DNA of 64,000 bases from a virus (IMGVR_UViG_3300033145_002015:26600-90599), one strand, 5' to 3'; positions 2,045 through 61,169 are shown, numbered from the stretch's first letter. Made by a program: numbers and translations. Notes: generated from the letters alone by a model not told the origin.

Positions 2045-2058
2045 CGCAATCAATTGCG
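2045..2058. repeat. dispersed palindrome copy 1 (CGCAATCAATTGCG)
   Basis: intergenic; arms extend to GGGGCGCAAT-CA-ATTGCGCCCC at 2041-2062. Confidence 0.9.
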
Positions 2059-2070
2059 CCCCGACTTGGA

Positions 2071-2331
2071 CTATCGAAGTTTCTTGGGGGGAACTAGGGT
2101 GGGCACTATCAACCCGCTTCCGGGGCGGGCGATGCTTGTTTTCCGCAACGATCCGTCTCCTGTTGCTTCTCCGGCAGCAGCCCTTTCAATAAAGAACCTA
2201 CCGACTGCAATCATCGCCTCCGTAAGCAGACGAACGGACTCGTGATATGACGCTGGAAAGTTTTCCAGAACCAACCGCCCATCGCTCATAATAGCTATCC
2301 CGACCTTCTTGATAACCTTCGCCTGCTCCAT
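2071..2331 (-). CDS. hypothetical protein
   Basis: 86-aa ORF with GGAGG SD upstream. Confidence 0.6.
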   Translation of the reverse strand: MEQAKVIKKVGIAIMSDGRLVLENFPASYHESVRLLTEAMIAVGRFFIERAAAGEATGDGSLRKTSIARPGSGLIVPTLVPPKKLR

Positions 2332-2471
2332 AACTAACCTCCTTCGACGTTCCTGTTACCGAAAACAGTAGTAATAACCCTCGAACTAATTTTTAACGCT
2401 CTAAAAATCGACAAGAAATCCAATGAAATGCATAGTAATAACCACCGACTGATTTTTTAACGCTCTTTTTT

Positions 2472-4748
2472 TCAAACGATTCTCGCACGAAAACGCCTCC
2501 GTGCCGGCCTCGCTGATTTGGGTCTATTCTTTCGAGATCGTCGGGAACTACGCTCAGAAGAATCATGCGTTTCCTCCTGCCTGCGTCGGCGGAGAGCTTG
2601 CATCGCCATAACTTCTTCTTCATCAAGAAGCATATCTTGCTCGTTTGAATCAGTGTCTTTTTGCTCTTCCTGTTCTATTTGTTCAGCGTCCGATTGAGCA
2701 GATGTGCTGAGCCATTCCGGAAGCTGAAGATTCAATTCTTTCTGGCTGGCATAAGTAGCTCTGAGTTTGGTGAGATTGTAAACCACCCCGCAAACTGAAT
2801 CAGCCAAGTCTTTGGATCCGTTTGGAGGATGATCCACTTTCGCATTCTCACGATCCAGTTCCAGCTCCCGCAATTCGGATAAGAGAACCGGATGCGGAGG
2901 ATATAATACCCGCTTCTGCCGCAAAGCCAGTTTGAAAGTCATATATGGATCTATGGATCGGTCCACGCTGATTCTTTTCGTAAAGATAGTACTGGTCTTT
3001 CTGACATTTTGCATAAGCTGGGCCGACTCGTATTTATCCATCGAAAGCCAGATGATCGGAATCCCCACCTTAGCCATGGCAAGAACCAGACCCTGAATTT
3101 TCTCAAGATCAATTTCTTCAGTTCGAGGCGGGACGACTTGAAGAATACCATCAATAAAAATGACTGGAGCCTTGATCCCCCGCATCGTTCGATAATTATC
3201 AGTGGCAGGGACATAATGCATGAGTTCGGCCTTGGGATTCAATCCCATCACTCTTCCGACAGCAATGCCGACGCTATTGGCAGTCAGAGCGGAATCGATA
3301 TGAATTGCGAATTCCGGTTCCCGCGTGAATCCGTGTGCGATCCAATTACGGATAAAAGTATCCACGTACTCATAATTGATTAACTGATCCAGATCGGTGC
3401 TGGAAATTTTATCCAAATCAATAGCATCATCGGTAAATAATTGCATCGGTTCCGGAACAATTCTTCTGTACGCAGTTATCGGCCATGTAATCCATTCACG
3501 ACTCGGGATAAATTGATGCCTTCGCACCCTCGGAATACCTGCAATATCTCGCAGGGCGGCGTCCATATCCTGTTCAAAATCCTGTTTATGCTCGATTGGA
3601 ACTTCAATTACATTCGATGGATCATCCGCTTCATCCATGGAGTTGATGATTCTGGCCTGTTTTCGCTCGTCTCCCAGATCGATCAGAAACATTTTTCCGG
3701 AATATCGTCTGGAATCCAGCCTCCCGTCATCATATCGAAACGCTTCCCATTGAGGCATTGAAATATAAAGTACGGTTGGATTATTTTTGGCTTCAATTTC
3801 TTTCTGAGATGTGAAATCCCCAGGGTAATTGGCCGAAGAAACCAAAAATAATTTCCCCGGAAGGGTCCCCCCGGACTGTAAAAATCTCGATTTCATCCTG
3901 CGGAGGATGGTCAAATACAATTCTTTCGCCTTATCGTATTCATCTTCACCTCTTAATTCGGCCAATTTTGATTTTCTGGACCTTGCCATAAAATTTATTT
4001 CGTCAATACAGGCTGCAATTATGTTCATTCCCAGAGCAGAAGTGTCGCTTCCGCTTATTGGAAGGACGGAAATGTTATTTGGGAAGTGTAATTCAGTCGT
4101 AAAAGAAGGATCATACGGAAAAACGGACTTAAAATACGGGGAATTGATTATTTTTTCTCGAAAAGAGGAGAATAAAACCTTTTTTGCTAGAGTCAAGGTG
4201 ATTGATTGAAACGTCAAAACGATTGAAGATCCCGGAGCCAGGCCGAATTCAATTTGCGGATTATGATAACAGGACAGCAAATATAAGAAATATCCCATGG
4301 AAAGGTCGATTGTATAGTTCTTTCCCCATCCAATACTCCCAGAAAGCACAACCTCAATATACTGATTGGACTGAAAAATCTTATTTATTGCCCTTAAAAC
4401 ACCTGGTCGGACTGCATCGGCCTGCCCCATATACTCAGGGGAACAGATAAACTCTTCCACCGAAACCGGTTGTCTGGCAAAACCACGATTTTGATAAAGA
4501 TAATCTGGATTGCTGGTCCTGATACTCGCAATCCAATTCTGATAAAAATCAATGATGTCTGCGACCCTGAAGTACCGCTTCCCGTTTTTTGTCCTCGATT
4601 CGACGGAGAAAATTACCCGTTCCATTTCCATCTGAAGACCTGCGGCCTCCCTGTGCGAAAGCTGCAGTTCTTCATTGGCGAGACGAACCAGATAATCCCG
4701 CACGGATTCTTCGGAAATCCAAGAATCTCGTTGAGCTTTATTCGTCAT
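2472..4748 (-). CDS. terL: terminase large subunit
   Basis: Walker A-like SGSIGWGKNY, Walker B CIDEINF, RNase H nuclease motifs IHIDSALT and KVDHPPNGSKDLADSVCG; N-terminal PVSVEEFICSPEYMG typical of large-phage TerL. Confidence 0.9.
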   Translation of the reverse strand: MTNKAQRDSWISEESVRDYLVRLANEELQLSHREAAGLQMEMERVIFSVESRTKNGKRYFRVADIIDFYQNWIASIRTSNPDYLYQNRGFARQPVSVEEFICSPEYMGQADAVRPGVLRAINKIFQSNQYIEVVLSGSIGWGKNYTIDLSMGYFLYLLSCYHNPQIEFGLAPGSSIVLTFQSITLTLAKKVLFSSFREKIINSPYFKSVFPYDPSFTTELHFPNNISVLPISGSDTSALGMNIIAACIDEINFMARSRKSKLAELRGEDEYDKAKELYLTILRRMKSRFLQSGGTLPGKLFLVSSANYPGDFTSQKEIEAKNNPTVLYISMPQWEAFRYDDGRLDSRRYSGKMFLIDLGDERKQARIINSMDEADDPSNVIEVPIEHKQDFEQDMDAALRDIAGIPRVRRHQFIPSREWITWPITAYRRIVPEPMQLFTDDAIDLDKISSTDLDQLINYEYVDTFIRNWIAHGFTREPEFAIHIDSALTANSVGIAVGRVMGLNPKAELMHYVPATDNYRTMRGIKAPVIFIDGILQVVPPRTEEIDLEKIQGLVLAMAKVGIPIIWLSMDKYESAQLMQNVRKTSTIFTKRISVDRSIDPYMTFKLALRQKRVLYPPHPVLLSELRELELDRENAKVDHPPNGSKDLADSVCGVVYNLTKLRATYASQKELNLQLPEWLSTSAQSDAEQIEQEEQKDTDSNEQDMLLDEEEVMAMQALRRRRQEETHDSSERSSRRSRKNRPKSARPARRRFRARIV

Positions 4749-60528: not shown

Positions 60529-60775
60529 TTATTGTTCCACCAAGAGCCCCCTTGCCTTGTTCCTGTTGTTCCTGTTGGCGTTCGTATCGTTCGCCAGCCA
60601 ATCGTAAAAACAACATCAGTTGCGGAAGACTATATTTTCGTACTTCCGAAAAAGAATGCCCATTTGCCAGCAACGCATCCACACATATTGCTATTGTTTT
60701 CTCGAACCCTGGCTCTGTCCCACCACTCGACCGAATACCGGTTGAAGTGACTGAGCCAGGGCGGCCCAGTTTCCC
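60437..60775 (-). CDS. tail assembly chaperone gpT portion (reached by -1 frameshift)
   Basis: the -1 frame is open from the slippery site to 60437, encoding ..DALLANGHSFSEVRKYSLPQLMLF. Confidence 0.7.
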   Translation of the reverse strand, partial: GKLGRPGSVTSTGIRSSGGTEPGFEKTIAICVDALLANGHSFSEVRKYSLPQLMLFLRLAGERYERQQEQQEQGKGALGGTINGSRRKIATSYRDAHPGSYERYKASRRRTR

Positions 60776-61110
60776 AGGACCTCCTCGTTGAGATTGAGTT
60801 CGACGAATGCCTGCAAGAGCATCGGCAAATCATTCAAAGTCAATGTTTTGTCTGCGCCTGGAGGCAAACAATAAGGTAGGATGCTCGTGAATTGCTCGAC
60901 TACCGAGAATCCCACCAGTGCCATCGTTTCTTCTGAATTGTCCGAAGCCGCAGAAACGGCCCCTACAATAGCTTTGAAGGCGGTCAGAATCTTGGGCAGA
61001 TGCTCCAGCGGAATAGGATGCATCATCACCTTTCTTCCACCGGAGAGATTAACTTCTTTGGAAGGAAAAAGAATGTCAAGTTCTGTGGTCTTTTGCTTTT
61101 CTCCTGTCAT
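60691..61110 (-). CDS. tail assembly chaperone gpG
   Basis: lies between tail tube and tape measure; contains the G GGA AAC slippery heptamer. Confidence 0.8.
   Translation of the reverse strand: MTGEKQKTTELDILFPSKEVNLSGGRKVMMHPIPLEHLPKILTAFKAIVGAVSAASDNSEETMALVGFSVVEQFTSILPYCLPPGADKTLTLNDLPMLLQAFVELNLNEEVLGNWAALAQSLQPVFGRVVGQSQGSRKQ
60769..60775 (-). promoter_or_regulatory. -1 programmed ribosomal frameshift site GGGAAAC
   Basis: X XXY YYZ in the gpG frame (CTG GGA AAC). Confidence 0.75.
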
Positions 61111-61155
61111 GCCGATGTCCTCCTCTGTTATTATCCCACATTACCGACTCAGATC

Positions 61156-61169
61156 CGCAATTGATTGCG
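61156..61169. repeat. dispersed palindrome copy 12 (CGCAATTGATTGCG)
   Basis: intergenic between tail tube and chaperone genes. Confidence 0.9.

Follow-up and report, generated by a model that had tools for sequence, protein, structure and literature searches.

On the IncP plasmid RK2 (~60 kb), the 12 OB operators of the protein KorB, each a 13-bp palindrome, are dispersed along the DNA, some near promoters and some far from them (PMC11790492). Among phages, Cluster O mycobacteriophages carry 17-bp dyad repeats (TGTTCGG-N3-CCGAACA), more than 30 per genome, with invariant arms and a variable, often asymmetric centre (Cresawn et al. 2015, PMC4351075). About one-third of these repeats are genic, many stand at gene starts and they follow no orientation rule, the phages themselves being not obviously temperate; a ParB-like protein and an AAA ATPase are among their gene products, and the authors suggested a dimeric DNA-binding protein with a role other than transcription initiation, leaving the function unknown (PMC4351075). 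Here we analyse IMGVR_UViG_3300033145_002015:26600-90599, a stretch of 64 kb (hereafter the window) from the 90.6-kb contig of an uncultured lytic-type phage, whose remaining ~26 kb lay outside the analysis. The window carries 12 dispersed copies of a 14-bp palindrome, and this palindrome lattice is real, strongly selected and conserved across a phage clade. Its reader is probably a predicted helix-turn-helix (HTH) protein of 327 amino acids (aa) encoded at 11391-12374, called p327 below.

The Cluster O repeats are the closest published phage phenomenon and the only comparable dispersed palindromes that we found in print for phages, where they stand unexplained. Invariant arms around a centre that varies, tens of genic and intergenic copies, the lack of an orientation rule and a phage that is not obviously temperate all recur here, whereas lineage and host differ, the site is built 6-2-6 instead of 7-3-7, and no candidate reader was proposed for Cluster O. 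For the lattice of the present clade, full-text literature searches found no description, and the matches to the motif were LacI-family operators and primers. By analogy, KorB with its 12 OB palindromes would be the closest mechanistic model. The likeness lies in about a dozen exact short palindromes, in a 13-bp version found in relatives and in a site that is commonly found upstream of the candidate reader's gene; the differences are a lytic-type phage host, mostly genic sites, regular spacing and a separate ParB_N protein that is optional in the clade. KorB has an N-terminal CTPase domain, which makes it a sliding clamp, and the partners KorA and IncC (ParA), whereas p327 has no ParB_N domain. 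Noc-NBS, ParB-parS and SopB-sopC likewise pair 14-16-bp palindromes with a ParB-type HTH, Noc sites extending over most of the chromosome; however, Noc, ParB and SopB keep the CTP-binding N-domain that p327 lacks, and they act within cells in segregation or in the control of division sites. Why a lytic phage should need segregation is not obvious, and neither a ParA-type ATPase nor a KorA-type co-repressor was seen among the ~60 window open reading frames (ORFs) scanned with PHROGs or Pfam, a scan that was not exhaustive. Since its candidate reader lacks one of the features that define ParB and KorB, the CTPase N-domain, we file the present system as working like those and not as a member.

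Twelve exact palindromes selected as DNA

The palindrome CGCAATYRATTGCR has 12 exact copies in the window, against a mean of 0.00 in 100 dinucleotide-preserving shuffles, and its core GCAATNNATTGC also has 12 copies, against 0.12 expected from such shuffles. The original prediction, made from the sequence alone, had placed 12 copies at these same positions and put their chance expectation near zero, and both statements hold. The copies, to which no strand is assigned, are:

2045..2058, copy 1: intergenic; arms lengthened to GGGG/CCCC; followed at 29 bp by a promoter-like sequence on the minus strand
10395..10408, copy 2: within ORF 9594-10547; peptide LQLIA
14833..14846, copy 3: near the 5′ end of the RuvC-like ORF 14285-14932; peptide AINC; an 18-bp perfect palindrome
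22822..22835, copy 4: within the DnaB-like helicase gene; peptide LQSIA
26686..26699, copy 5: within ORF 26426-26818; peptide AIDC
31913..31926, copy 6: intergenic; upstream of the gene for DNA polymerase, at 75 bp
37050..37063, copy 7: intergenic; arms lengthened to CACC/GGTG; immediately precedes the ribosome-binding site (RBS) of ORF 36696-37058
39728..39741, copy 8: within ORF 39170-39937; peptide LQSIA
46390..46403, copy 9: within ORF 45238-46527; peptide LQLIA
50367..50380, copy 10: within a 1077-aa ORF; peptide PQSIA
56092..56105, copy 11: near the 3′ end of a 1539-aa ORF; peptide VQSIA
61156..61169, copy 12: intergenic; upstream of ORF 60691-61110

Sites with one mismatch in the 10 specified core bases number just two in 64 kb, at 30864 and 57197, so the motif of the window is unusually sharp. 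The gaps between copies run from 2678 to 8350 bp with a mean of 5374 bp, in agreement with the predicted 2.7-8.4 kb and mean of ~5.4 kb, and their coefficient of variation is 0.32, compared with 0.93 under random placement; an equally even spacing arose in 0 of 5000 simulations. Four copies are intergenic (2045, 31913, 37050 and 61156), three of them with arms lengthened to 8-10 bp, and eight are coding, with the peptide Q[SL]IA in six and AI[DN]C in two; the counts of genic copies, reading frames, intergenic copies and extended arms are all as first reported.

All long ORFs of the window lie on the minus strand, and GC skew is negative throughout. As read on the coding strand, the motif is YGCAATYRATTGCG, and its centres are CA (5), TG (5), TA (1) and CG (1). 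The two strands are not quite equivalent, a point absent from the original prediction: base 1 is T in five coding copies, while the terminal G never varies. In the Q.IA frame this G is the synonymous third position of Ala, yet it is invariant.

When synonymous codons were shuffled within each gene and intergenic DNA was left untouched, the copy total dropped from 12 to a mean of 3.4, about the number of the untouched intergenic copies. The eight coding copies are thus stripped by a control that preserves the codons, which bears out the earlier claim that selection acts on the DNA. Moreover, every Q[SL]IA (6/6) and AI[DN]C (2/2) peptide among the window proteins is encoded by the motif; since both peptides occur solely there, the DNA word dictates the peptides and not the reverse. 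Selection on the sequence of the duplex DNA is what maintains the palindromes. Avoidance of restriction sites was considered as the cause of the asymmetric centres and is inconsistent with the data, because the CA/TG form of the window itself creates CAATTG.

The lattice in related phages

The original prediction had proposed a search for the palindromes in related phages. Nine whole or nearly whole genomes of relatives carry 15-42 copies each, every genome with its own 13-14-bp TG..CA spelling, and for eight of them the counts are:

Pseudomonas phage SM1 (cultured, P. aeruginosa, 93 kb): 30 copies of TGCAARCGYTTGCA
G001: 24 copies
G002: 42 copies
G003: 31 copies
G004: 30 copies
G005: 22 copies
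G007: 28 copies
G008: 15 copies

A syntenic metagenomic relative, L001, with a polymerase of 37% identity, bears TGAAAT-YR-ATTTCA six times in 22.6 kb, and the palindrome of L003 is TGAACA-CG-TGTTCA. An unbiased, Bonferroni-corrected palindrome scan over 80 polymerase-anchored IMG/VR loci found that ~20 have their own dispersed 13-16-bp palindrome, with spellings such as TGCAAT-YR-ATTGCA, TGCAAG-CG-CTTGCA, TGCAGG-WW-CCTGCA, TGAAAC-CR-GTTTCA, TGCAAC-SS-GTTGCA and the 13-bp TGCAAC-W-GTTGCA. The outer G.A of the half-site is constant clade-wide, base 1 is T in most relatives and mostly C in the window, and the inner half-site bases vary from phage to phage. The polymerase relative PMBT14 has neither the lattice nor a protein of the p327 family, and the lattice follows the phage lineage over GC contents from 46% to 63%. 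Judged from these genomes, the lattice is a lineage trait whose architecture is conserved while its spelling changes.

Of 7 genomes analysed, 5 space their sites more evenly than expected at random and all 7 have intergenic DNA enriched for sites; coding copies crowd at gene ends. Two TGCAAC half-sites flank a 2-bp centre in G003 and a 1-bp centre in G004 and G005, a difference that fits independently tethered HTHs better than a rigid dimer. Centres are biased to steps that are not self-complementary (CA/TG in 23 of 24 sites of G001, AA/TT in 42 of 42 of G002, mostly GG/CC in G003); for the SM1 half-site, the variant A/A was seen in 0 of 29 cases. In the window and six relatives (7/7 genomes), the asymmetric centre has no orientation bias relative to transcription, which points to a symmetric reader of duplex DNA rather than to an RNA or strand-specific signal.

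The same observation decides on the stoperator-like system that had been offered as an alternative. Cluster A stoperators are also many 13-14-bp sites found genome-wide, in and between genes, and bound by one phage protein (PMC4351075), but they are asymmetric, oriented with transcription and serve the immunity repressors of temperate phages. The sites here have symmetric arms and balanced centres without orientation bias in seven genomes, and stoperators are excluded on these grounds.

As the original prediction had noticed, two of the window sites stand just upstream of promoters; these are sigma70-like, on the minus strand and 16-29 bp from the site, and one of them is that of the polymerase gene:

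1987..2015, minus strand: sigma70-like promoter TTGACC-17-TATAAT, downstream of copy 1
31868..31896, minus strand: sigma70-like promoter TTGACT-17-TAAAGT, in the interval from copy 6 to the polymerase gene

Five relatives (L001, L003, L008, L010 and L011) likewise have a site before the polymerase gene, in the position of copy 6. Because sites beside promoters recur in this way, a KorB-like regulatory role at some of the window sites is plausible from their position, and the majority of sites are far from any promoter, as are those of Cluster O phages. The motif itself was rejected as a promoter: the 30 SM1 sites have no conserved flanks beyond the letters of stop codons, and an RBS follows 2-10 nt after. 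Very often the SM1 palindrome stands directly after a stop codon (TAA/TAG then TGCAA...) and ends 2-10 nt before the next RBS, for example at record positions 15031, 51474, 59455, 70074, 72559 and 88852 (L085/L086). Twice its TG doubles as the TG of a start codon (ATGCAAACG..., peptide MQTLA).

Candidate readers of the lattice

Comparison of the genes of the window, SM1 and G001-G005 gave 12 families common to all seven genomes, of which two resemble sequence-specific DNA binders, p327 and a MerR-type protein. These two and a ParB-family protein are the candidates considered here:

11391..12374, minus strand: p327, 327-aa predicted HTH protein, best candidate reader; basic N-terminus, core and C-terminal HeH/SAP-like motif
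17636..18214, minus strand: MerR-type winged-HTH protein with a long helix; likely start ATG at 18214, after a GAGGAGG RBS
5527..6456, minus strand: ParB N-domain ('ParB-like nuclease') protein; disfavoured as reader

All 12 of the lattice genomes that were searched encode a member of the p327 family, that of SM1 being gp050 (ALT58042.1). The AlphaFold model of p327 contains a confidently predicted helical core (residues ~22-150, predicted local distance difference test score 84-92), which VIA-align matched to Spo0J (Z 9.2), to the DNA-binding domain of ParB on parS (Z 8.2), to that of KorB on its operator (Z 7.0 for 1r71, 6.4 for 8qa8) and also to SopB and VirB, and which Foldseek matched to Noc. 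The core models as a DNA-binding fold of the ParB/Spo0J/KorB type, a consistent family signal to be taken with caution. No Pfam domain, the CTPase domain PF02195 included, was found in p327 and 20 database homologues. Relatives of p327 have an N-terminal SH3-like module and AKP-rich tracts, the latter perhaps histone-H1-like.

Protein and lattice were also compared in the opposite direction. We fetched 64 IMG/VR loci through p327 and sought palindromes within 20 kb, and 40 of them have a significant dispersed palindrome, nearly always of the TG..CA type. L142 and L173 (YGCAATYRATTGCR) and L134 (GCGCAATCGATTGCGC) share the unusual first-base C of the window. A site centre lies 2-170 bp, often 50-170 bp, upstream of the p327-family gene in 5/7 genomes, compared with 19% of all gene starts, and in 13 of 31 distinct loci, where random points would give 2.7. 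With the putative recognition helix Y-RKA-M-YL, the first base of the site is ~100% T (24 variants), while Asp or Gln in place of the helix Met is accompanied by a C that is tolerated or preferred (79% C in the window, whose protein has Gln86 there within RKA-Q-YL, 79% in L134 and 56% in L142). Pairing of Met with the thymine methyl and of Asp or Gln with the cytosine amino group would be chemically sensible. Side by side with these, the phage contigs L125 and L128 (160-170 kb) and L136 (10 kb) encode a p327 homologue with the helix RKAQYLV and carry a different dispersed palindrome, GCGCATGCGC, and the pairing of protein and lattice may reach beyond the TG..CA family. A mutual-information search for covariation between candidate columns and half-site bases returned many 'significant' columns, which we discounted as phylogenetic signal.

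Several observations weigh against p327 as the reader. Z values of 7-9 lie below the level where helical domains are safe from chance resemblance, and sequence searches gave no match of p327 to ParB or KorB. Some loci that bear the protein have a sparse lattice or none, and the window itself has no site upstream of the p327 gene, the nearest being ~1 kb off. The split between residue and first base is mirrored in the MerR-like protein (R-W versus H/N/Q-W), so phylogeny confounds it. The putative recognition helix is nearly invariant (YRKAMYLI.IY) across phages whose sites have different inner half-site bases, and it does not account for those bases. Moreover, the 26 kb of contig beyond the window may encode other DNA-binding proteins.

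Taking both sides together, we lean, with somewhat better than even confidence, towards a lattice of docking sites for a symmetric dimeric DNA-binding protein encoded by the phage, most likely p327. That such a dimeric phage protein docks at the palindromes was already the idea of the original prediction, and it fits all the indirect evidence; of the two readers suggested then, the ParB-family protein 5527-6456 is disfavoured and the HTH protein is favoured, being universal in lattice genomes, with a modelled fold of the ParB/KorB type and sites upstream of its gene. We infer from this evidence the binding of the sites by p327, its binding as a dimer and the outcome of binding. One HTH of the protein would recognise each half-site, YGCAAT together with the central base, the HTHs being loosely tethered as in ParB and KorB. 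Sites would act as nucleation points from which p327 covers, bridges or regulates the whole chromosome, and the spacing may be even because each site serves a limited stretch of DNA. The outcome would be organization or silencing similar to that by KorB or Noc, and not segregation of the plasmid type.

The ram sites of RacA are 14-bp TG...CA palindromes, and a RacA-like reader that anchors or organizes the chromosome through dispersed palindromes would be the MerR-type protein 17636-18214. In 7/7 genomes of the first comparison its gene stands, without exception, between those for the helicase and RecA, the SM1 protein being gp044, and in all the protein was seen in the window and seven relatives; it matches Pfam MerR_1 (E 2.5e-7), and its model, a winged HTH followed by a long helix, resembles BmrR, CadR and the RacA-DNA complex in Foldseek with probabilities of 0.99-1.0 but E-values of just 5e-3 to 3e-2. 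RacA of B. subtilis (PDB 5i44) is itself a MerR-like winged HTH on dispersed sites; ram sites, however, are GC-rich and clustered near the origin, and some lattice genomes yielded no detectable MerR-like protein. It was undetected in the complete lattice genome G008 (best E 0.26), where a homologue may have been missed since the family is divergent, is weak in G007 (E 1.6e-3) and is absent from G006 and G009. The recognition helix is variable, as expected of a specificity determinant, and the residue before an invariant Trp is Arg with a strict first-base T and His, Asn or Gln where C is allowed; nevertheless, L140 has Ser there despite a strict T, phages sharing one motif have different helices, and comparison of the recognition helices gave no clean rule. 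No site lies upstream of this gene in any of 7 genomes, and a rigid coiled-coil dimer would poorly suit the change between 13- and 14-bp sites. We regard the MerR-type protein as an unlikely reader. Less likely still is that the ParB_N protein 5527-6456 loads at the palindromes as a CTP-dependent clamp, perhaps as a split ParB together with p327. It has a ParB_N match in Pfam (E 3.9e-9) and sequence matches to Spo0J of H. pylori and T. thermophilus, its gene (gp051 in SM1) adjoins that of the p327 homologue in both SM1 and G001, 7 of the 12 lattice genomes encode ParB_N, and Cluster O phages with their 17-bp dyad repeats likewise encode a ParB-like protein (PMC4351075). But it is not one of the 12 shared families, the Pfam model has 0 matches in the complete lattice genomes G004, G005 and G007, and the stretch aligned to the ParB HTH, REFESLVEDV, is acidic, which together make this protein improbable as the reader; its arginine patch is GEQR instead of GERR, and the PHROG name of its family is 'ParB-like partition nuclease'.

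The remaining explanations look to proteins of another kind or to RNA. The sites might be targets of a sequence-specific enzyme that nicks or cuts them for recombination-dependent replication (compare the T5-type nicks) or modifies their bases, and the phage does encode RecA/UvsX, a Cas4-like exonuclease, RuvC-like and other resolvases, a single-stranded DNA-binding protein (SSB), glycosyltransferases and a methyltransferase-like protein. Palindromes would suit homodimeric nucleases, and the non-self-complementary centres (CA/TG, AA/TT, GG/CC) and the slight strand asymmetry of the first and last bases would agree with an enzyme. Among the families conserved in all lattice genomes compared, however, there is no candidate sequence-specific nuclease or modification enzyme, and we know of no precedent for enriched, evenly spaced self-cleavage sites; we give this explanation only a small chance. 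It is very improbable that the phage copies the operator of a host regulator of the LacI/PurR type (14-16-bp consensus TGNAANCGNTTNCA) and recruits the host protein. The motif family agrees with the LacI/GalR operator consensus, the window motif departs from the PurR box at a single position of each half-site, and the full 14-mer of L015 is the PtxS operator. A string within the L015 motif, GAAACCGGTTTC, is found in papers on Pseudomonas PtxS and GntR. Against a host protein, neither the 13-bp variants nor centres of AA/TT, GG/CC or AT are compatible with LacI-type sites. LacI-type hinge-helix binding occurs at a central CG, which is present in 1 of the 12 window sites, relatives using AA/TT, GG/CC or a single central base. 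Furthermore, the trait tracks phage lineage across GC contents of 46-63%, a conserved phage protein, that of the p327 family, co-occurs with it, and no LacI-type domain turned up in the window ORFs scanned. Least credible of all are RNA hairpins for processing, stability or translational control. Sites are enriched at gene boundaries, many SM1 sites stand between a stop codon and the next RBS, and three intergenic window copies have arms of 8-10 bp; yet the motif letters are strictly conserved without compensatory changes, the asymmetric centre is equally common in both orientations on the coding strand, stems are just 5-6 bp in most copies, an Rfam search of the window had 0 matches, and no T-run directly follows the stem.

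The phage and the meaning of its lattice

The gene content of the window is that of a tailed phage which encodes a replisome and a recombination set of its own; lysogeny genes were not seen. Replication genes comprise a family-A polymerase with an N-terminal domain resembling uracil-DNA glycosylase (UDG), a DnaB-like helicase, a primase and a second helicase; further genes are a portal, UvsX/RecA, a Cas4-like exonuclease, RuvC-like resolvases, an AAA ATPase and glycosyltransferases. The polymerase has at most 29% identity to that of any cultured phage and at most 44% to any protein in a large collection. Close DNA relatives of the window were not found in the phage collection, nor were close relatives in a single-protein scan of IMG/VR.

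Some features of the window deserve mention in their own right:

29286-31838, minus strand: family-A polymerase whose UDG-family domain is PF03167; in 25 relatives C76 and C95 are invariant and C7 and C10 nearly so, and some polymerase relatives carry intein or HNH insertions
19606-20352, minus strand: gp32-like SSB by alignment; it contains a CxxC zinc motif, and its C terminus ends in an acidic ...DDIPF; no Pfam match, and listed by PHROG as unknown
25108-25220: 113 consecutive T (A as read on the coding strand), located in the gap from ORF 23538-24863 to ORF 25253-25510; if not an artefact of assembly, a most unusual homopolymer tract
63894-63999: tandem 12/18-nt repeats (CTACTGGTCGTA, with CTGCTG inserts) within an open-ended minus-strand ORF, a repetitive coding segment
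32276-32629, minus strand: phage-encoded S-adenosylmethionine decarboxylase (Pfam AdoMet_dc, E 1.2e-33), possibly an auxiliary gene for polyamines or DNA modification
26221-26412, 26426-26818 and 12364-13965, minus strand: DUF2997 adjoining a weak DUF1257 match; DUF2997 and a classical AAA ATPase are kept in 7/7 genomes compared
2472-4748, minus strand: 758-aa protein, 30% identical to SM1_055 (SM1 gp055), no family match; in 5/7 genomes, in the neighbourhood of ParB and glycosyltransferase genes

Dispersed palindromes of the ParB/KorB/Noc type are known from plasmids and bacterial chromosomes, and a comparable arrangement is here a conserved, quantifiable trait shared by many phages of 60-110 kb, a large clade found in many environments, with sites strong enough to dictate amino acids in unrelated proteins. 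The lattice co-occurs with an uncharacterised family that resembles the DNA-binding domain of ParB minus the clamp. The natural diversity of site and protein pairs is a ready data set on how an HTH family changes its specificity, and, because the clade includes the cultured phage SM1 with its 30 sites, the purpose of a genome-wide address lattice in a lytic phage is directly testable. Compaction, protection, timing of expression and help in replication or packaging are purposes among which sequence cannot decide. A bolder form of the proposal, which we hold only tentatively and think rather doubtful, is that a CTPase-less relative of ParB and KorB with histone-like basic tails coats the chromosome of a lytic phage from sites written through its genes. 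If true, the virus would encode a sequence-addressed 'chromatin' by which its own DNA is distinguished from that of the host, its lattice period would be set by the reach of the protein, and the coating could serve protection from nucleases, genome-wide timing of expression or handover to replication and packaging.

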